Shown here piece after piece: positions 13,964-22,071 of a stretch of 64,000 nt of DNA. The stretch covers positions 12,834 to 76,833 of the forward strand of contig ARRA01000004.1 in the NCBI GenBank assembly GCA_000384935.1, written 5' to 3'. The position numbers were made by a program, and so were the translations under genes. How positions within the stretch are numbered: position 1 is the stretch's first letter; each line of letters opens with the position of its first letter. Origin of the DNA: a gamma proteobacterium SCGC AAA076-P13. GTDB taxonomy: Bacteria; Pseudomonadota; Gammaproteobacteria; Magnimaribacterales; D2472. The notes under the pieces are model-generated. The model was not told where the DNA came from and searched no databases. It saw only the letters and a program-made list of their open reading frames with translations.

Positions 13964-14602
13964 TTACTTCCAATTACCTTTTCTTCCTGATAAATCCCAA
14001 TTGATTCTTGACCACATCAATTGGATTCGTCTTTCTATATACCTTTTTGCAAAGAAATCACTCATCTCAGGAAGCGGAACAAACGATGATGAACCTAGGC
14101 CATCAATAATTTTTAGAACGATTAAATTGTCTTCATAGCCCACAACTATATTATGTGGAATGATATTTTTTGTTAAAACTAAACTAGATCTTAGCCAAGA
14201 TTCAAAATCATCTAGAGCTTTCTTTATTTCATCTGTCATGCCAAATGTAAACAAATATTTTTCAAGTGTGATTGCTATATTTTGATTATTATCTAGGACT
14301 AATTCTGTTTCTGATGCTGGCCCTATAGATGTTTCAACCATTCCATACCATCTAGCTAAATGCTTCCATTTATTTGGATTATTATTCTTAAGAGATCTTT
14401 GTTGATAAGCAGATTGCTCTCTAAGATTATCATCAAAGCTTTCTGCTGATCTAAGTTTTTTATACCAAGCTGCATTTTTTTTTACTTTTTCTGATTGGCC
14501 TTCAAAAGAAATCTTAAGACATCTATCTTTTTTTAAAGGATGAATAAAGCATCGCCTATTACCGCCTTGAGCAAAGTACTCGATGTTATTCAGGTTAATC
14601 AT
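13964..14602 (-). CDS. YrbL-family kinase-like protein
   Basis: FAQGGNRRCFIHP..CLKI, YGMVETSIG, NIVV..IIDGLG. Confidence 0.7.
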   Translation of the reverse strand: MINLNNIEYFAQGGNRRCFIHPLKKDRCLKISFEGQSEKVKKNAAWYKKLRSAESFDDNLREQSAYQQRSLKNNNPNKWKHLARWYGMVETSIGPASETELVLDNNQNIAITLEKYLFTFGMTDEIKKALDDFESWLRSSLVLTKNIIPHNIVVGYEDNLIVLKIIDGLGSSSFVPLPEMSDFFAKRYIERRIQLMWSRINWDLSGRKGNWK

Positions 14603-14673: not shown

Positions 14674-14704
14674 TGTTCGCTCTTAATTCAATAGAATTTA
14701 TTAA

Positions 14705-14744
14705 GGGCCTGTAGCTCAGTTGGTTAGAGCAGTGGACTCATAAT
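14705..14744 (+). repeat. attL: 40-bp direct repeat, 5' half of tRNA-Ile2 through the anticodon loop (truncated tRNA)
   Basis: GGGCCTGTAGCTCAGTTGGTTAGAGCAGTGGACTCATAAT is identical to 21995-22034, then diverges (TCCTTG vs CCATTG). Confidence 0.97.
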
Positions 14745-14802
14745 TCCTTGCTACAACTCTAAACCCCCATTCCTACAATGTTTTTTAGTACCACTTTTTA
14801 GT

Positions 14803-14828
14803 ATGTGTCAGTTTTTTTGCGACACACT
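14803..14828. repeat. putative integrase arm-binding sites, left end
   Basis: ATGTGTCAG (14803-14811) and inverted GACACACT (14821-14828) match the right-end AGTGTGTCAG motif. Confidence 0.65.
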
Positions 14829-15629
14829 CTTATTGATAGGCAATGGAAATACACCTTTGTGAATGTTATCAACATTCCTTCTGCCTTTAGTTGTCATTCT
14901 AAAGCCAAGTGCCTTTGCGTACTGAACTTTATCAGCAATGCCTTCTCCTAACTTATTTGTACCAACACCTTCAATGTCATAAACAGTATCGCCTTTTCTC
15001 CACACAGTTCCTTTCTTTCTAATAATCTTCCAACCTCTTAACTCTGCTCCAATCTCTGTAAGTGTTAAACCCTTCTTCCATAAGTCATAAGCCTTTAATG
15101 ACTCAATCATTTCTGTTTCTCTGTTTCTTGCTGATAGTTTTATTTTAAGTCTTGCTCTACTGCCTTTATCGTATTCGTAGTTGTCTCTCATAATGATTTT
15201 TATTCTTTTCATTACATCTTCTTTTGATAGGTATGTTGGTATTGCTATGACTTTAATTCTTTCTTCTTCTATTTCGTCTTTTAGTGATATAGCATCCTCA
15301 TAATTTATAAAGTCAGCAAACTCTAAACTTGGTTCAGCAAATAAAAACTCTCCTCGTCTTTGTCTGTCGTTATCTACTTTCTCATTCCACCAAGTCTTAA
15401 AGTCTTTGTTTCTTATATCTCCAAAGTTTCTGTATAACTTTTGATTACCTTTGCCTTCATTTTTCATTACTTTGTCGTAGTAAGGATTTCGTTTCATATA
15501 CTCAAACCACAAGTAGTAGAAGTTGCTTTCCCACCAAGTTCCATTAGTAGAAGTCTCTACTCCTCTTTGAGTAAAAAGAGGGTGCTTACCCTTAAAACGC
15601 CTGGTTCGAATTGCCTTTAGTTTAGCCAT
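14808..15629 (-). CDS. putative FseA-like (DUF6499/DUF2285-type) transcriptional activator
   Basis: Likely start MAKLKAIR at 15629; LWFEYMKRNPYY resembles DUF6499 WEFLRRNPxY; SLKAYDLWKKGLTLTEIGAEL resembles the DUF2285 HTH. Confidence 0.5.
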   Translation of the reverse strand: MAKLKAIRTRRFKGKHPLFTQRGVETSTNGTWWESNFYYLWFEYMKRNPYYDKVMKNEGKGNQKLYRNFGDIRNKDFKTWWNEKVDNDRQRRGEFLFAEPSLEFADFINYEDAISLKDEIEEERIKVIAIPTYLSKEDVMKRIKIIMRDNYEYDKGSRARLKIKLSARNRETEMIESLKAYDLWKKGLTLTEIGAELRGWKIIRKKGTVWRKGDTVYDIEGVGTNKLGEGIADKVQYAKALGFRMTTKGRRNVDNIHKGVFPLPINKSVSQKN

Positions 15630-15748
15630 AGTTAGTGTGGTGTATATAGATAAGACTATGGTATCAGTATTGAAATATGAACACCACCAAATGTTGGTAT
15701 TCTGTATATATGTTCGCAATAAAGCAGACATAAAAAAAAGGAAATAAT

Positions 15749-16168
15749 ATGAGTAATAGTACCAAAAATCGTTTCGAAGCATTAAGCAACGAAGAGAAAA
15801 AAGAAGTAAGAAAGCAATGGGGCAAAACATACAATAGGCATTTCTATTGTGTATATGTGAAAGATTTTCACACACCTTATTACATAGAAATACCACAACA
15901 AACAGAGCAGTTGAATATGAAATTCAAACTGTTTTATATATGTGATTATTATGGGTTTGAATTAGAAGACATAAGACGAGCATTCAAAGTTTCTATGTCT
16001 CCTTGTTTTCATAATTGGCATCCGAACATACTTGTTGATTTAAGTTATCCAAATACAGAAAGCAACAACACTTATGTAAAAACTTTATCAGAACAAGGAC
16101 GCACAAAAACCTTTGTTTTTGATGAAAAGAAAGTTATTGAAAAAACTACAGAATTGGAGGTGGCGTAA
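15749..16168 (+). CDS. hypothetical element protein
   Basis: 139-aa ORF with AAGGA SD; first of four coupled + strand ORFs. Confidence 0.7.
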   Translation: MSNSTKNRFEALSNEEKKEVRKQWGKTYNRHFYCVYVKDFHTPYYIEIPQQTEQLNMKFKLFYICDYYGFELEDIRRAFKVSMSPCFHNWHPNILVDLSYPNTESNNTYVKTLSEQGRTKTFVFDEKKVIEKTTELEVA

Positions 16169-16710
16169 TGAGAAAGGCAGTAAGAGAATTGCTTAAACAA
16201 AGACAACAAAGTAGCGAAGACTTATTGAAGCAAGTTGATGTTAAGCAAGTTGGAGGTGGCAGAGCAAAAGATTGCTTTAATAATTCTGTAGATTTTGCTG
16301 TTCAAAACAGCGATAGAGAGAGATACAAAATTGTAAGTGGTTGGTTAGTTGGCGAGTTCGATAGAGAGTTTAACGGCACAGCAATCATTCATCATTATTG
16401 GAACTATGATACTAAGACAAAAGAATACATAGACATAACACCAAATATTGATGATAGGGATATGACATACAAATATGTCGTCGACACTGAACTAATGGCT
16501 TACTCACAACAGCCACATATCTACGAGATTATTGATGACTGTGTTGGACATAGTATGTGGTACAGCAATGGTAAGTTTAGTTTAGTCACTAAGCCTTTCT
16601 TAACTCAAATACCAGTTGGTAATTGTGGTTTAGGAACAGAGTTGTTTTTTATGGACTTTGGTGGAGTGGACAAAATAAACAGAGCATTAAAACAAATGGA
16701 GGTGGCGTAA
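16168..16710 (+). CDS. hypothetical protein with candidate Cys-His-Asp (transglutaminase/papain-like) triad
   Basis: GRAKDCFNN..VSGWLV..IIHHYWN..YIDITP; GGAGG SD and TAATG coupling. Confidence 0.6.
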   Translation: MRKAVRELLKQRQQSSEDLLKQVDVKQVGGGRAKDCFNNSVDFAVQNSDRERYKIVSGWLVGEFDREFNGTAIIHHYWNYDTKTKEYIDITPNIDDRDMTYKYVVDTELMAYSQQPHIYEIIDDCVGHSMWYSNGKFSLVTKPFLTQIPVGNCGLGTELFFMDFGGVDKINRALKQMEVA

Positions 16711-16994
16711 TGAATATAGATATGAATGCTTTAGAGCAACATCAAACAACCCTTCTGTTTCATTTTTATGACTTTGGAGATAGAGATGAATTTATAGATA
16801 TGTTGGGTGGAAGAAATACAGATACACACTATGGTATTGATGTTTTTTATTTAAGAACAGACTATGGATATAGCACAGATTGTTTTATCAAAATTGAAGC
16901 AAGAGGTAGAGAAAATGCTGAGATGTTATATGAGCAAATTAGTAATTGGGCTGATGACTGTGGCACAGACACAATGTATTCCTCAATCGTTTAA
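16710..16994 (+). CDS. hypothetical acidic protein (94 aa)
   Basis: Start MNIDMNALE at TAATG junction with GGAGG SD. Confidence 0.65.
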   Translation: MNIDMNALEQHQTTLLFHFYDFGDRDEFIDMLGGRNTDTHYGIDVFYLRTDYGYSTDCFIKIEARGRENAEMLYEQISNWADDCGTDTMYSSIV

Positions 16995-16996
16995 CA

Positions 16997-17182
16997 ATGA
17001 GAAAGAAGCCAACTAACCCTCAACTAAAACACTTAAAACACGAAGTGTATATTGAGCCAACAACAGTCGCACATCACAAGTTTGTATTGAGATGTGCTGA
17101 CTGTGAAGGTGCTTTTATTAAATGGCTTAGTAGGACAGACGCAGAGTTTTTAATGGGGGAAGGTGTTGTTTTTATTTCTTAA
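16997..17182 (+). CDS. small phage-type zinc-finger protein
   Basis: H..HHKFVLRCADC..FIKWLS motif; 61 aa. Confidence 0.6.
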   Translation: MRKKPTNPQLKHLKHEVYIEPTTVAHHKFVLRCADCEGAFIKWLSRTDAEFLMGEGVVFIS

Positions 17183-17423
17183 CAATCTTCCTAATCTCTT
17201 TTGGCTTAATGCCTAACCTCATAAGCCAAGTTAAAGTTGAAATATGCTCTTCGCTTTCTTCTTCAATCAAATCCGATGCTAAGCCTATACACTCATTACA
17301 TATAGCCAAGTTCTCATACCAACCAACATTAGCAACTATAAGTTTCTCAACATCATCTTCAGTTTTATTACAGAAACTACATACGCCCAATTTACGCATA
17401 GATTTTGGTACTTCTTTGCTCAT
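17172..17423 (-). CDS. stand-alone ClpX C4-type zinc-finger domain protein
   Basis: CSFCNKTEDDVEKLI..ICNECIGLASDLI matches ClpX N-domain CSFCGKxxxEVxKLI..ICDECVxLCxxII. Confidence 0.8.
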   Translation of the reverse strand: MSKEVPKSMRKLGVCSFCNKTEDDVEKLIVANVGWYENLAICNECIGLASDLIEEESEEHISTLTWLMRLGIKPKEIRKIVKK

Positions 17424-17704
17424 TAGATTTCTTCTAATACTTTATTTTCTAATTCAACTAAAACCATATCTGCTAACTTCTCGTTTGTTTCATATGAAGT
17501 AAAACCATTTTCTTTAAGTTGTTTTGCTGTCTGCTTTAATCCCACATATAACTTACATAAACTATCGTTGCTGATGTCTTGTCTTCTGTGTTTCATTACA
17601 TACAAATAACTCTTACTCTTTCCTAAGTATTGCTCTGTAAAGTCAACTTTAGTTAAACCTCTGTTATGTTCTTTCAGTGTGTTAAATACCTTGTCTAATA
17701 TCAT
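17423..17704 (-). CDS. small HTH-like protein (DUF6626-like)
   Basis: DFTEQYLGKSKSYLYVMK; strong TAAGGAG SD; coupled to the ClpX-finger ORF. Confidence 0.5.
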   Translation of the reverse strand: MILDKVFNTLKEHNRGLTKVDFTEQYLGKSKSYLYVMKHRRQDISNDSLCKLYVGLKQTAKQLKENGFTSYETNEKLADMVLVELENKVLEEI

Positions 17705-17823
17705 TCTTGTTTCTCCTTAATGTATTACTAATAGTGATAAATAGTAGTAAGTAAAGTAATTAGACATAGCAATGCTACACACTCCCCAAAAGTATGTTTC
17801 AAATTGTTTTAATAGATTTAGTT

Positions 17824-18306
17824 TTATTGTTTATTGCTGTGCTTACTAATAAAACTGCTTCGCAAATCTATTTTATATTTCTTTAATGTGTATCTGCTAA
17901 CAGCATCTCTGTTAGCAATCTGTGTTGCGTGAAATAAGAAACCCTTTTCTCTTTTAGTATTAAGTAGTTTCATATATTCCAATTTTAATAACTCAATCAT
18001 TTGTTCATTCGTAAAACCTTCTAATGTTTTAACTTGTATATGTGCGTGTGTTCTTTTTTCATCACCTTCAATTACTACAGCCCTTTTTATATGAAATTTA
18101 TCTTTGTACTTATATAACTCTCTTCTCCACTCGCCATTTATATTCTTCCCAAATACATCACATTCAATTTTGTAAAATAATCTACACATCAATTCACTCA
18201 TTTGTTCTTTAGTAAGTTCTACTTCTGTATTCAATGTAATAAACAAATCAAAACTTTGTTTGTCTAACCACTCTGTTGTTGCTTCTCTTAACTTGTATTC
18301 GTTCAT
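17824..18306 (-). CDS. minimal HUH-endonuclease rolling-circle Rep
   Basis: Ordered RCR motifs: I FITLN, conserved E, II THAHIQV (HUH), III RYTLK (YxxK). Confidence 0.72.
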   Translation of the reverse strand: MNEYKLREATTEWLDKQSFDLFITLNTEVELTKEQMSELMCRLFYKIECDVFGKNINGEWRRELYKYKDKFHIKRAVVIEGDEKRTHAHIQVKTLEGFTNEQMIELLKLEYMKLLNTKREKGFLFHATQIANRDAVSRYTLKKYKIDLRSSFISKHSNKQ

Positions 18307-18356
18307 ACAAGTTATTTATCAAAACCTTACAGATTAAGGATGTTTTTTTAGACTAA

Positions 18357-18827
18357 CTAAATGTCAGTAGCACTATTTGCCAACTTGGTAACAAGTTCAG
18401 CATTGTCATTAGTTGCTTGGGTATAAGAGTTTTGTAAATCTATATAGGCTTGCTGTTGAGCAATTTGTGCCATTTCTTCAGACTGAAGAACTTCATCCGT
18501 TGCTTGTAGTATTTTTGTTTCTGCTTCGTAATTTAATTCTTGTCTTATTTCCTCTAAGTAATTAAGTGCTTCAGCACAAGTTCCACCACTTCTCATAAAC
18601 TCATCTTGTACATCGTTGTAGTTCATAGTGGGAGTAATGTATGTACTAACTGCTCTGCTTAACTTACTAATCACATTTTGATTTTCACAAGTAAGCCTTA
18701 GCCATTGCCAATCAGCATCACTTATTTGCCCATCAAACTTTGCTTTTGACTTTAATCCCACAATCTTTTCAGCAATACTAACAATGCTTTGAAAACTAAC
18801 CCCTTCAAAAATCTCATATAGTTTCAT
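18357..18827 (-). CDS. hypothetical helical protein, N-terminus MKLYEIFE
   Basis: ORF track 18357-18860; the internal ATG at 18827 is the more plausible start. Confidence 0.6.
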   Translation of the reverse strand: MKLYEIFEGVSFQSIVSIAEKIVGLKSKAKFDGQISDADWQWLRLTCENQNVISKLSRAVSTYITPTMNYNDVQDEFMRSGGTCAEALNYLEEIRQELNYEAETKILQATDEVLQSEEMAQIAQQQAYIDLQNSYTQATNDNAELVTKLANSATDI

Positions 18828-19177
18828 AATTTTTCTGCTTTCCGAACTCTCTTTCCACATAGTTCAACTTTGTAATTCTTTTCTTCTTACCTTCACCCAC
18901 ACTATTTCTTACAGTTTTAATGCTTATTGTTATTTATCGTAATAACTCCGCTTTTGTATTAAATCCTTTAGTTATTGCTCTAAACCCTTGTTAAGCCTTG
19001 TTATTACGGCGTTTGTAATCTTCTGCCTTTTTCGGATGACAGATATAAATTAAGACTTTATCGTTGTACGCAACATAGAACAGAGTTATTGAATGAATAA
19101 AAAGGAAAAAGAAGAAGAATTAAAACGAATGCTTAATGTGACTAATGTGTCTATAGGCAAAACTTGGAGAAAAAAAT

Positions 19178-19753
19178 ATGCGACAAGCAAAAGTGCTGAC
19201 AAAGGAACAAATAAAAAAGGTATTAAAGGTATGCCAACTAACAAGACACGAAGATAGAAATAGATTTATTGTTTATCTTTCTTTTTTAAGTGGAATGAGG
19301 GCAATTGAAATTGCTAACTTGCGAGTAAACAATGTTGTAAATGCTGAAAATGAAGTATTAGACACTATTGCTTTAGACAAAACGCAAACAAAGGGCAATA
19401 AAGGGCAGACTGTTTATGTTGGTAAAGCATTAAGAAAAGAGATTGCTGTTTATTTTAAGAAGTTTCCTCATTTATTAAATAATAAAGAAGGTAGTTTAAT
19501 CAAAACTCAAAAAGGCAAAACAACAAGTGCCACTATTCAGTATGTATTTAAGCAGTTATATGAGTTAGCAAACATACCTAACGCAACATCACATAGTGGG
19601 CGTAGAAGTTTTATAACTGAATTAAGTGAAAAGGGCGTTAGTGTTCGTGTGATACAAGAACTTGCTCGTCATAGTTCCTTACAAACTACGCAAAGGTACA
19701 TAGATGTGAGTGTGCCAAAACTTAAAGGGGCTGTAGATTTAATAAATGTTTAA
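19178..19753 (+). CDS. short tyrosine recombinase (catalytic domain only)
   Basis: SGMRAIEI (R), TKG (K), SHSGRRSF (HxxR), LARHSS (H), TQRY (Y); GGAG SD. Confidence 0.93.
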   Translation: MRQAKVLTKEQIKKVLKVCQLTRHEDRNRFIVYLSFLSGMRAIEIANLRVNNVVNAENEVLDTIALDKTQTKGNKGQTVYVGKALRKEIAVYFKKFPHLLNNKEGSLIKTQKGKTTSATIQYVFKQLYELANIPNATSHSGRRSFITELSEKGVSVRVIQELARHSSLQTTQRYIDVSVPKLKGAVDLINV

Positions 19754-19967
19754 TTATTTAATGGATTTAATTATAGGCGTATTTAATTTCGCCTTTAATT
19801 TCGTGTATTACACCTTAATTATTGTGGGAATATTATTTTTATTCGTAATAATTGGGTAAATGAATGCTTACTAAAGCCTATAACCACAGTATTTTCGGCT
19901 AATTAGACTTAATCTAAGCTTCTCTAAGCAGTTTTATTGAAATATTAGTGTGTTTATACCCAATTAC

Positions 19968-20438
19968 TTAAGTAATGCTTGTTAAGTAGGGTTTTAATAG
20001 GGGAGTTTTCTTAGTAATTTCGGCTGAAATTTCCCAATAATTCTTTGCTGTCATATCAGTTTTACCATTTAAGTATTCAAATAGTTTTTCTGTCTGTGTG
20101 TACTTGTAGTTATCTTCTTCTCCTTTGCTACAAGCAACCCAATCTCCCATTAGTAAACTAATGCCAAAAGCATTCCAACTTTCGAACATACACTTTTGTT
20201 TATCGCTTAAATGAATATCCCTAATAATTATCTCAACTAACTTGTTTACACATTGGTTGTAATCGCTATTGTTAAAAATAGGATGTCGATTTATGAACAA
20301 ATGTATTAGTTCTCTATTGTTAGTTGTGAACTTAACCTCTTCTTCTTCATCTCCAAAAATTAAAGGTACAGTAATTTTTACTGATTGAACTTTTACATAT
20401 TGGTTTTTATAGACTGTTATATTTTCAAACTCATTCAT
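19968..20438 (-). CDS. hypothetical protein downstream of the integrase
   Basis: GAGGAG SD before ATG at 20438 (MNEFENITV), 10 nt downstream of the integrase stop. Confidence 0.65.
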   Translation of the reverse strand: MNEFENITVYKNQYVKVQSVKITVPLIFGDEEEEVKFTTNNRELIHLFINRHPIFNNSDYNQCVNKLVEIIIRDIHLSDKQKCMFESWNAFGISLLMGDWVACSKGEEDNYKYTQTEKLFEYLNGKTDMTAKNYWEISAEITKKTPLLKPYLTSIT

Positions 20439-20448
20439 TCTTCTCTCC

Positions 20449-21873
20449 TCAATCTTCATAGTTCTTTAGTAGTTGCTTCATTGCTTCTACTATTTTCTGC
20501 TCTTCTTTTTTATTAGTTTTTTTGAATTTCATATCACTTGCTAAGCCTACAAAAGCACTTGCTAATGAAGTTGCTTGTGCTTTGTTGTAAAACTTATCTA
20601 ATACGACAGCACTATTTCCTAATTGCTCTGCTACTAAAACTCCATTACTTGTTTCTTCTAATAACTCTGTTGCGTATGTATGTCTCAAACTATACAAACT
20701 TCGTTTGTTGCCTTCTTTGTTCTCATACAGTTTTATATCTTTAAGCAACTTCATAAATGCTTTGCTTGTTTGCTCACTTAACCTTTTGTTTCGTGCTTCT
20801 AACTTTGCTTTACTAAGTTTGCTCACACCAACTTCACTTGCTAATCGCACAACATACTCATCACAGTTAAACAGCTCTTTTAAGCAATCTCTTTTATTCT
20901 TTTCAGTTTTAAGTTTGTTTTTCTTATTGTGCTTGTTCCAAATGTCGCTGCTCTTTTCAGTTCTACTTGCTATGCGTAGTAGGGCGTTTTCAAATGCTCC
21001 ACTTGATGTTCGTATTATTACCTTCCTACTTGCTTTAGTTTTTGTTTCATTCTGTTTTAAGTAGCAAACCAAATACTCTTTTACATCAGCATCACTAAAA
21101 AACTGTTCTTCAACTTTACCTAACGCAGTCACTTGCTCATATTCAAAACTACTAAATCGTACTCGCATTATTTCTAAGCCAACTCTAATAGCACTATGAA
21201 GTAGTAAGAAGTAATAGTCGTATAGCAGTTCTGCTATTTCATTTGTAGTTTTGTTTTTGCTTTTGTTTGCTCGTTTGTTAGTTAGGGCAGTACGGACTTT
21301 TTGTTGCTGTGCTTTTGTAAAATGTAATCTCTTTGTTGCTTCAGTCACATTCGTTTTTACAAAATCAATTTCGTTGTTTATGTAGTTATTGTTTTTAGCA
21401 AACTTCATTAAGGCGTTCCAACTTGCTTGTTGTGTGTTTTGCCTTGTCCTACTTATTGCTTCTTTTCTTTGGGAAACAAACTCTTCTACATCTTGTTCCT
21501 TAATAGCAGTCATCACATAACTGCTAAAAAACTTCATAAACTTATTTTCAATTGTTGTTATGTATTCGCTTTCAATATCTTTAGCAATGCCTTTTTCAAT
21601 TCTGTCTTTAGTTTTAGCAATGTACTCTTTTGCTACAAAACCAAATGTCTTGTTTACAACAACAGCTCCCTTTGTTTCGTTTCTAAAAATATCTTCTGCT
21701 ATTTGTTTTGCTACAGCAGTTGCTTTGCGTAGTTCAGTTTCGCTTGTGCTTTGTCTGTAGTATTTGTTTTTCTGTGTAGCACTCTTCACAGAGACTTGAT
21801 AGAACTTGCTGTTCTTTCTCATACTTAAAGTTATGAAACTATCTACCTTCTTTTCTTTCATACCCTCACTCAA
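20449..21873 (-). CDS. tyrosine integrase of the tRNA-Ile2 element
   Basis: N-terminal arm-binding-like YYRQSTSETELRKA; SAIRVGLE (R), TK, LYSLRHTYAT, QLGNS, KFY; adjacent to attR. Confidence 0.9.
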   Translation of the reverse strand: MSEGMKEKKVDSFITLSMRKNSKFYQVSVKSATQKNKYYRQSTSETELRKATAVAKQIAEDIFRNETKGAVVVNKTFGFVAKEYIAKTKDRIEKGIAKDIESEYITTIENKFMKFFSSYVMTAIKEQDVEEFVSQRKEAISRTRQNTQQASWNALMKFAKNNNYINNEIDFVKTNVTEATKRLHFTKAQQQKVRTALTNKRANKSKNKTTNEIAELLYDYYFLLLHSAIRVGLEIMRVRFSSFEYEQVTALGKVEEQFFSDADVKEYLVCYLKQNETKTKASRKVIIRTSSGAFENALLRIASRTEKSSDIWNKHNKKNKLKTEKNKRDCLKELFNCDEYVVRLASEVGVSKLSKAKLEARNKRLSEQTSKAFMKLLKDIKLYENKEGNKRSLYSLRHTYATELLEETSNGVLVAEQLGNSAVVLDKFYNKAQATSLASAFVGLASDMKFKKTNKKEEQKIVEAMKQLLKNYED

Positions 21874-21920
21874 ATAGTGTAAAATTCACTTCTCTTTTTA
21901 ATAGCAATTATTATAAAGCA

Positions 21921-21956
21921 AGTGTGTCAGAGTGTGTAAGGATTTTTGACACATAT
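21921..21956. repeat. putative integrase arm-binding sites, right end
   Basis: Tandem AGTGTGTCAG / AGTGTGTAAG (21921-21940) plus inverted TGACACATAT (21947-21956). Confidence 0.7.
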
Positions 21957-21973
21957 ATTTTTAGAGATATGCT
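21946..21973 (+). promoter_or_regulatory. element-encoded sigma70 promoter for the restored tRNA-Ile2
   Basis: TTGACA (21946-21951)-N16-TATGCT (21968-21973), 21 bp upstream of the tRNA. Confidence 0.65.
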
Positions 21974-21994
21974 TGTAAAGGTTGATTTAACAAG

Positions 21995-22071
21995 GGGCCT
22001 GTAGCTCAGTTGGTTAGAGCAGTGGACTCATAATCCATTGGTCGTAGGTTCGAGTCCTACCGGGCCCACCA
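21995..22071 (+). tRNA. ileX: tRNA-Ile2 (anticodon CAT, lysidine-modified type); contains attR
   Basis: Full cloverleaf GGGCCTG..CTCATAA..GTAGGTTCGAGTCCTAC-CGGGCCCACCA; resembles ileX rather than Met tRNAs; located downstream of rpoD. Confidence 0.9.

Follow-up and report, generated by a model that had tools for sequence, protein, structure and literature searches.

The locus discussed here raises the question of what switches on a small genomic island that carries its own replication gene. The window, that is the whole 64,000 nucleotide (nt) stretch of contig ARRA01000004.1 that was analysed, belongs to the gammaproteobacterium SCGC AAA076-P13, which has an assembly of 1.31 Mb with about 34% GC and is a member of an order represented by 266 genomes in 4 families; the organism is probably SAR86-like. 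The island (14704-22040, 7.3 kb) is delimited by a repeat that corresponds to the 5' half of a tRNA-Met gene, and encodes, among others, a predicted replication protein (Rep), a helical protein (c1) and a tyrosine integrase. A preliminary description of this DNA had noted T4-like late promoter motifs ahead of Rep and its neighbour, and had suggested that an infecting T4-like myophage activates both genes. Judged from sequence comparisons, control of the motifs by a phage sigma factor of some gp55 type appears likely. The more specific reading, that the island is a satellite of a marine jumbo myophage, whose gp55-like late sigma factor would recognise the TAAATA boxes, is in our opinion probable.

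Three boxes are found in the region around Rep, two identical copies of GATAAATAAC (boxes 1 and 2) and one GATAAATA (box 3), with the positions and strands given in the preliminary description (Table 1); all three are intergenic. Box 1 also has the layout reported there, only 6 nt from the Rep ATG and not accompanied by a Shine-Dalgarno (SD) sequence. Box 2 is not leaderless in the window, since its distance is 70 nt to the first ATG, and about 100 nt to the c1 start that is conserved (18827). By number alone, the boxes do not stand out. GATAAATA occurs 9 times in the whole window, compared with 7.17 expected occurrences (30 of 100 shuffles reach 9), and 3 times in the element, compared with 0.92 at the genome rate (P=0.067). 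The intergenic DNA of the element contains 7 repeated 10-mers against a simulation mean of 5.5, and at least one such repeat turns up in 97.5% of the simulations of the element. The enrichment that the preliminary description had proposed as a check is not significant at the level of window and element, and was dropped as support; the significance of the motif comes from its conservation in relatives. A consensus scan detected no sigma70-like site just upstream of Rep or c1. Relative to the Rep start, positions -42 to -38, upstream of box 1, form a conserved A-tract (A conserved 0.85-0.96). The hairpin in the same region was considered as a conserved terminator and rejected, because its folding is inconsistent across loci (-0.1 to -9.5 kcal/mol).

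Relatives of Rep were collected from 41 metagenome and 2 genome loci. Six of these lack the Rep 5' end, and the remaining 37 were scored together with the window. In all 38 loci, a TAAATA box is located 5-6 nt ahead of the Rep start (ATAAATA in 32, CTAAATA in 6), even at Rep identities down to 35%, so that the conservation upstream of Rep homologues, which had been proposed as a check, is indeed present. The loci contain 26 distinct Rep upstream sequences, none with an SD-like word, and column conservation across these is 0.88-1.0 in the box, compared with 0.38-0.77 at -36 to -15. All 22 loci that cover the region have box 2 upstream of c1, and in four relatives (L013, L014, L025 and L027) it sits 5 nt ahead of the ATG. 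Box 3 is found in antisense orientation in 26 of 27 junctions between Rep and c2, the gene for a DUF6626 protein. A second gene layout has c8 as the counterpart of c2, with a weak match to the PF20331 family (E=7e-4). There, a sense box is located ahead of c8 at each of the 13 junctions. The boxes are retained where genes are rearranged, and their conservation extends over both layouts and over insertion sites or host flanks of five kinds; the loci are kin, and the counts are not independent trials. Among the 8 distinct leaderless island boxes, 5 begin with GA and none with TA.

Which polymerase specificity do such boxes suggest? Both the late promoters of T4 (TATAAATA, gp55) and the ATAAATA motifs of the jumbo phages CBB and GAP32 consist, like the island boxes, of a lone TAAATA box without -35 element ahead of virion genes; in the sections available, the report on CBB also describes ATAAATA ahead of structural genes, and a gp55-like sigma factor without gp33 or gp45 (PMC5259590). 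The island box differs from these in being located on a chromosomal island, in beginning with G, and in abutting the start codon. For comparison with the classic system, we used 80 loci around marine gp55 genes, where TATAAATA accounts for 34 of 35 gp3, 12 of 12 gp22 and 17 of 20 gp23 boxes, and 8 gp3 genes are leaderless at 5 nt. The pattern GATAAATA-GTWGT-ATG occurs in more than 121 viral stretches. In the 80 that were examined, most of the ATGs open long open reading frames (ORFs), and among the genes behind such boxes are those for neck, tail tube, baseplate wedge, end protector and terminase proteins. The neck proteins from these matches, which also led to PA5oct and G144, are closest to those of PA5oct (50%) and of the GAP32, CBB and Atu_ph07 jumbo phages. 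In G141, a jumbo phage fragment, box and ATG are 5-6 nt apart in 24 of 24 cases, and 11 boxes are GATAAATA; in the fragment G144, reached via the G141 neck protein, 26 of 34 distances are 5 nt. The Rep loci have the same geometry as these virion genes, with a TAAATA core at about -13 to -6 of the start and no -35 element. The host shows no peak in box-to-ATG spacing (8 of 82 at 5-6 nt), and its assembly, which is 87% complete, contains two sigma70-family genes, RpoD and one other.

The first base of the box helps to distinguish between helper classes. Near ORF starts, the ratio of G to T is 25:5 in G144, 17:3 in PA5oct and 18:4 in G141, where the count is biased, and to that extent a point against the jumbo assignment, because G141 was found by a GATAAATA-seeded scan. 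The ratio is 2:10 in HTVC008M and 2:13 in Melnitz. The gp55-like late sigma phrog_12791 is present in 3 of 5 records, including G144, where its gene lies at 119281-120102. A gp45 profile has a match in HTVC008M and none in PA5oct, CBB, G144 and G141, the last two being fragments, and gp33 was found in none of the 5 records, in a search without positive control. The T4-like part of the original proposal stands insofar as boxes of the phage late type are concerned, but the classic consensus TATAAATA, which is not what the distinct leaderless island boxes have, and the classic gp55, gp33 and gp45 set suit the island less than the lineage related to PA5oct. With GATAAATA boxes, a gp55-like sigma and gp45 not found, PA5oct-related jumbo myophages appear to be the better fit for the helper. 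A 394 kb record (G139) showed no box enrichment (12, compared with 19 in the control). Published promoter data, as far as the accessible text goes, use TATAAAT as a query (PMC9004378), report that late promoter prediction failed for pelagimyophages (PMC7029224), and list only sigma70-like promoters for PA5oct (PMC7318152).

A jumbo phage of this kind may infect the order of the host. A gene for a membrane-like protein of 135 amino acids (aa) in G144 (G144:198448-198852) is 82% identical to a gene of the host genome (G000:C8:8228-8632). It has matches in 80 of the 266 genomes of the order (best 78-85%), and weak partial matches in 3 of 400 other genomes of the phylum. This points to G144 as a jumbo phage of the host's order, a link that is limited because one gene of one fragment carries it. 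The 135-aa protein is found in about half of the host family, and is usable as a host marker. As a separate observation, G141 and G144 carry host-like clpP, clpX, clpA, ferredoxin, metK and peptide deformylase-like genes (named from reading of the sequence), and the island encodes a ClpX-type zinc finger.

The c1 protein, for which no fold, family or Atlas match was found, starts with a short N-terminal word (Table 1), which 18 of 19 aligned homologues share, as do 87 of 120 from databases. A word of this type opens 16 of 444 ORFs of G141 and G144, compared with 2 of 1421 host ORFs and none of the 406 ORFs of Melnitz and HTVC008M. One G141 protein with such a start is homologous to PA5oct gp279, a virion protein detected by mass spectrometry (MS) that begins in the same way. 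The situation is reminiscent of T4 internal proteins, diverse proteins that, according to the part of the source consulted, have only a short N-terminal capsid targeting sequence in common (PMC3012670). The c1 word differs in being that of jumbo phage ORFs, and its targeting role would be by analogy. Loading of c1 into helper heads should be regarded as a lead, not a result. In one relative, a different box-led ORF (L024:188-754, minus strand) opens with a word of the jumbo type (MRFFEF), and has an SD sequence.

The name Rep was chosen for the 160-aa ORF because its invariant residues and its structure model match HUH Reps. In 40 sequences, H87, Y139 and K142 are invariant and H89 is nearly so. 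The model (predicted local distance difference test score, pLDDT, 78), of the ferredoxin-like type, has SIRV1 ORF119 (2x3g, Z 7.3) and AAV5 Rep (1m55, Z 7.2) as top folds. Z scores range from 6.3 to 7.3 overall, including pMV158 RepB (3dkx), which is a range reachable by a common fold. The protein also matches viral Reps, and Atlas assigns it with 0.96 to a replication protein cluster; neither Pfam nor PHROG has a match for the family. It is reasonable to consider the ORF a predicted HUH-type Rep, which has the fold and the HUH and YxxK residues of rolling-circle Reps such as those just named, and is unlike them in forming a 160-aa stand-alone family of predicted nickases.

Next to box 3, a conserved site has a GCTACAC core (17774-17780), in which C-T-A-C is invariant across 17 aligned loci of both layouts. 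A weak hairpin forms there in 3 of 6 loci, with z of about -2.1 to -2.6, but not in the window copy. The word of this site recurs at the attachment (att) arms, so that an operator or arm-type site is as likely as a nick site for Rep. Box 3 faces the site in one layout, and a box faces away from it in the other. For this reason, an R-loop at the origin, started from box 3, was rejected as a general mechanism. GATAAATA itself is disfavoured as the HUH nick site, since the bases 5' of the box vary and the spacing follows the start codons.

If the island is a jumbo phage satellite, it would be integrated and quiet in the uninfected cell, with only the integrase expressed, from a sigma70-like site. 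At a late stage of infection, the host RNA polymerase would use the phage sigma factor to start at box 2, for c1 and read-through, and at box 1, for a leaderless Rep followed by the DUF6626 and zinc-finger genes; box 3 would be started as well. The island would then excise, Rep would nick it, and enzymes, presumably borrowed because no helicase or primase gene is recognised in the island, would roll it into concatemers for packaging by a headful terminase. Excision has support from a form that was seen, and the chances seem evenly balanced that the island takes this course of excision, rolling-circle replication by borrowed enzymes, and packaging by the headful mode. It is more speculative that the N-terminus carries c1 into helper heads, and that box 3 opens the origin, or recruits terminase via the late sigma as gp55 does in T4. 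Extracts of gp55-deficient T4 are reported to package about 100-fold less DNA, and gp55 to help load the terminase (PMC3012670), which suggests the speculation that the gene-less box 3 could mark DNA for packaging. A tentative generalization, which we regard as rather doubtful at present, is that minimal satellites of lytic jumbo phages are widespread, and mimic both the helper's late promoter and an N-terminal head-loading signal. The promoter would then trigger excision and replication without sensor or repressor and draw the terminase, and the signal would send an island protein in the helper virion to the next cell.

Several observations weigh against a jumbo phage satellite. No transcript start, induction or virion-packaged copy was seen in the data examined, and no terminase or pac-like feature was identified in the element. 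Rep is carried by 1 of the 266 genomes of the order; in both sets of relatives that were searched, with 139 and 266 genomes, the host (G000) is alone in having it. Rep and c1 were not found in IMG/VR, which is weak evidence because the collection favours contigs with viral hallmark genes. There is no DNA likeness between the island and G141 or G144. The cultured phages PA5oct and CBB have 1 and 0 sites with leaderless spacing, respectively, and CBB has no G bias (G to T 6:6) and no c1-type word in 485 ORFs. In PA5oct, 3 of the 39 proteins detected by MS carry the word, compared with 0 of 41 others (P=0.11; 80 of 462 features). Finally, 11 leaderless sites, 2 of them with G, are found in HTVC008M, which belongs to the classic T4-like phages, so that the helper class is not settled.

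The last point leads to the alternative that the boxes are phage late promoters, but respond to a classic T4-like myophage (of the Kyanoviridae type, with gp55, gp33 and gp45), or to any gp55-type phage. The HTVC008M sites include 2 GATAAATA and 2 ACTAAATA, Melnitz has 3 leaderless sites, ACTAAATA is located at gp20 in 7 of 9 gp55 loci, and some of the GATAAATA-GTWGT-ATG matches are T4-type gp3 and end-protector genes. However, T dominates as first base in the classic phages, yet it is found in none of the 8 distinct leaderless island boxes, and the c1-type N-terminus is absent from Melnitz and HTVC008M, so that a classic trigger appears unlikely. The island might instead be a defence module, in which c1, driven by the late sigma, poisons head assembly, or Rep replication drains the infection, with spread in virions incidental or absent. 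Such a role would be in line with the lack of a recognised packaging gene, with a c1 protein that looks aimed at phage, and with absence from virus collections. The integrase, the att ends, the form with joined ends, and the variety of hosts and sites indicate mobility, and PADLOC has no match for 13 island proteins. Defence seems unlikely, and a slightly weaker candidate than the classic helper. Defence and hitch-hiking are not exclusive, as the example of PLE illustrates (PMC7567579).

Phage likeness would be a coincidence if an island protein (Rep, the DUF6626 protein or c7) bound or nicked the boxes, or if these were sigma70 promoters dependent on such a protein. In favour of this, box 3 is antisense with no gene behind it, AT-rich words of this length are frequent, and the targets of c2 and c7 are unassigned. 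The core of a -10 box is TAnnnT, which TAAATA does not resemble, and another, invariant site could serve as the origin or operator. Moreover, the boxes keep a fixed distance of 5-6 nt to the starts of two unrelated genes that have lost the SD sequence, and their spacers (GTAGT, GTTGT, CAGTT) are shared with phage late genes. We therefore consider island-protein sites improbable. That the boxes are chance AT-rich words kept by descent would agree with the window-level counts, but is largely refuted by the contrast in conservation between box and flank columns and by the retention of boxes on gene rearrangement, and is the least credible of the explanations by far.

The preferred reading, a satellite of a jumbo myophage, invites comparison with known satellites. 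Pfam and PHROG searches of the island detected no member of the P4 core set (Psu, Sid, delta, alpha, AlpA), and neither did they detect a primase-helicase or RepA, AlpA or MarR, TerS or capsid-size genes of phage-inducible chromosomal islands (PICI) and PICI-like elements (PLE); the replicon gene encodes an HUH protein. The integrase and RepA of PLE presumably belong to other families than the island proteins. By analogy, the island would work like PLE or like VEIMEs (virion-encapsidated integrative mobile elements), with a regulation like that of P4 with Ogr, yet its gene content does not conform to P4, PICI or PLE. VEIMEs resemble the island in size (5-17 kb), tyrosine integrase, streamlined marine hosts, lack of capsid genes and proposed rolling-circle concatemers, and differ from it in that they are defined by packaging in virions, which for the island would be a prediction. 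Their length peaks of 35 and 60 kb are not of jumbo size, and the VEIME datasets may contain the island family; the words promoter, SAR86, tRNA and myovirus do not occur in the main text of the report (PMC9618062). In P4, the late factor Ogr of the helper P2 promotes satellite late genes, which is akin to the control suggested here. Ogr is, however, an activator of a temperate phage, and P4 has its own delta in addition to alpha, Sid and Psu (PMC8628076, in the portion seen), whereas the island would use a lytic jumbo sigma directly. PLE of Vibrio cholerae, the satellite of the lytic phage ICP1, has an integrase made in uninfected cells, a phage-induced replication initiator and reliance on phage replication and virion genes, as proposed for the island. 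It differs in the early RepA cluster, in excision by phage PexA, and in that the sections of the description available contain no late-sigma promoter (PMC7567579).

No satellite with gp55-type promoters, or with a jumbo helper of this lineage, was found in searches of the open-access literature. If the reading is correct, the island would be a satellite triggered by mimicry of the promoter for a lytic jumbo phage's late sigma, and would tie a lineage of uncultured jumbo phages to an order of streamlined gammaproteobacteria that is very abundant. It would also provide a sequence rule to assign helpers to many orphan marine satellites, and a small reporter with which to test what promoters are preferred by jumbo gp55-like sigmas without gp33 and gp45.

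The att repeats and the integrase indicate the features of a site-specific integration system. The site is empty in 3 of 14 genus loci (G115, G120 and G129), and in L034, 1 of 14 loci compared for such a junction, the left and right island ends are joined through the core at 95-98% identity. By its junction, L034 is an excised or tandem form of the island. In the DNA runs X1 and X2, island depth is below flank depth, and an end-joining contig is absent among the joints listed. In the RNA runs X15 and X16, contig cover of the island is patchy; as contigs cannot show starts or levels, these data were not used. Also left unused were 8 IMG/VR matches to the exact 17-mer of box 1, judged to be chance coding matches with ORFs of 3-32 codons behind them. 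The island seems to supply the promoter of tRNA-Met, because integration duplicates the 5' half of this gene. On the left, the island adjoins a YrbL-like (PF10707) host gene (13964-14602).

Table 1. Features of the island in the window, in order of position
Feature	Position	Strand	Remarks
Left att core, copy of tRNA-Met 5' half	14704..14750	+	Direct repeat with 21995-22040
Left arm, GTGTC and GCGACACACT words	14800..14828	.	Likely integrase arm-type sites; kept in cargo-only mini-islands and L034 junction
c7, terminal ORF, 273 aa	14808..15629	-	Conserved, 14 loci; unnamed in library; lacks late box
Variable ORF cluster on opposite strand (139, 180, 94, 61 aa)	15749..17182	+	SD-led; 61-aa c4 in 23 loci
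c6, ClpX-type C4 zinc-finger protein	17172..17423	-	PF06689 E=3.5e-12; 16 loci
c2, DUF6626 protein downstream of Rep	17423..17704	-	PF20331 E=5.4e-10; candidate DNA-binding regulator or excision factor
Box 3, GATAAATA then GTAGTA	17736-17743	+	Intergenic; antisense into Rep via conserved site; precedes no gene
Conserved site, near-invariant GCTACAC core, weak hairpin	17767..17797	+	Candidate HUH nick site, or operator or arm-type site
Rep, 160-aa HUH endonuclease (predicted), one conserved Tyr	17824..18306	-	From residues and predicted fold
Box 1, GATAAATAAC	18311-18320	-	Intergenic; 6 nt ahead of Rep ATG (18306); no SD; predicted leaderless late promoter
A-tract and adjacent weak, variable hairpin	18325..18352	.	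Candidate UP-like element or terminator for antisense RNA
c1, 156-aa helical protein	18357..18827	-	N-terminus M-K/R-hydrophobic-x-E/D-hydrophobic; candidate passenger of helper virion
Box 2, GATAAATAAC	18929-18938	-	Intergenic; upstream of c1
c3, small tyrosine recombinase, catalytic domain only	19178..19753	+	PF00589 E=2.9e-26; 24 loci
c12, accessory ORF	19968..20459	-	6 loci
c5, large tyrosine integrase	20449..21873	-	phrog_1 E=7.6e-15; 16 loci
Sigma70-like site (10 of 12) ahead of integrase	21910..21938	-	Overlaps ACACACT arm words; consensus match alone
Sigma70-like site (10 of 12) within island, facing tRNA-Met	21946..21973	+	Consensus match alone
Intact tRNA-Met	21995..22071	+	5' half is right att core

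The remaining genes say little about function. None of 12 island ORFs matches a head or tail family in Pfam or PHROG, with several ORFs unnamed. The ORF cluster on the opposite strand has no Pfam, PHROG or PADLOC match at the cut-off, and contains the stop-start junction GGAGGTGGCGTAATGA in two identical copies (16155-16171 and 16697-16713). A possible resemblance of c7 to an FseA/DUF6499-like activator was discarded, as 8 members had no Pfam match. A small ORF (19093-19257, plus strand) that overlaps the c3 start is conserved in 9 loci.

The tRNA-Met site is also occupied by cargo-only mini-islands that keep both ends and lack integrase and Rep, in G112 (L420:9393-10549), G131 (L421), G117 (L422) and G114 (L419:12012-16187). 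They are possibly non-autonomous passengers, with an 841-aa TonB-receptor-like ORF or small membrane proteins among the genes that they carry. Relatives of the island are found at tRNA-Met, beside tRNA-Phe or beside guaA (for the latter, L033:2-1537 and L032:36-800), in DNA of 31-47% GC, and two of the records bear names of Pseudomonadales and Sphingomonadaceae metagenome-assembled genomes. The guaA gene of the L033 host is 99% identical to that of G000, and therefore the same host lineage appears to have been invaded at a second site. At the far end of L002, L041, L010, L033 and L040, the cargo varies, and comprises DNA methyltransferases, O-antigen acyltransferase-like and MORN-repeat-like ORFs, named from reading of the sequence.

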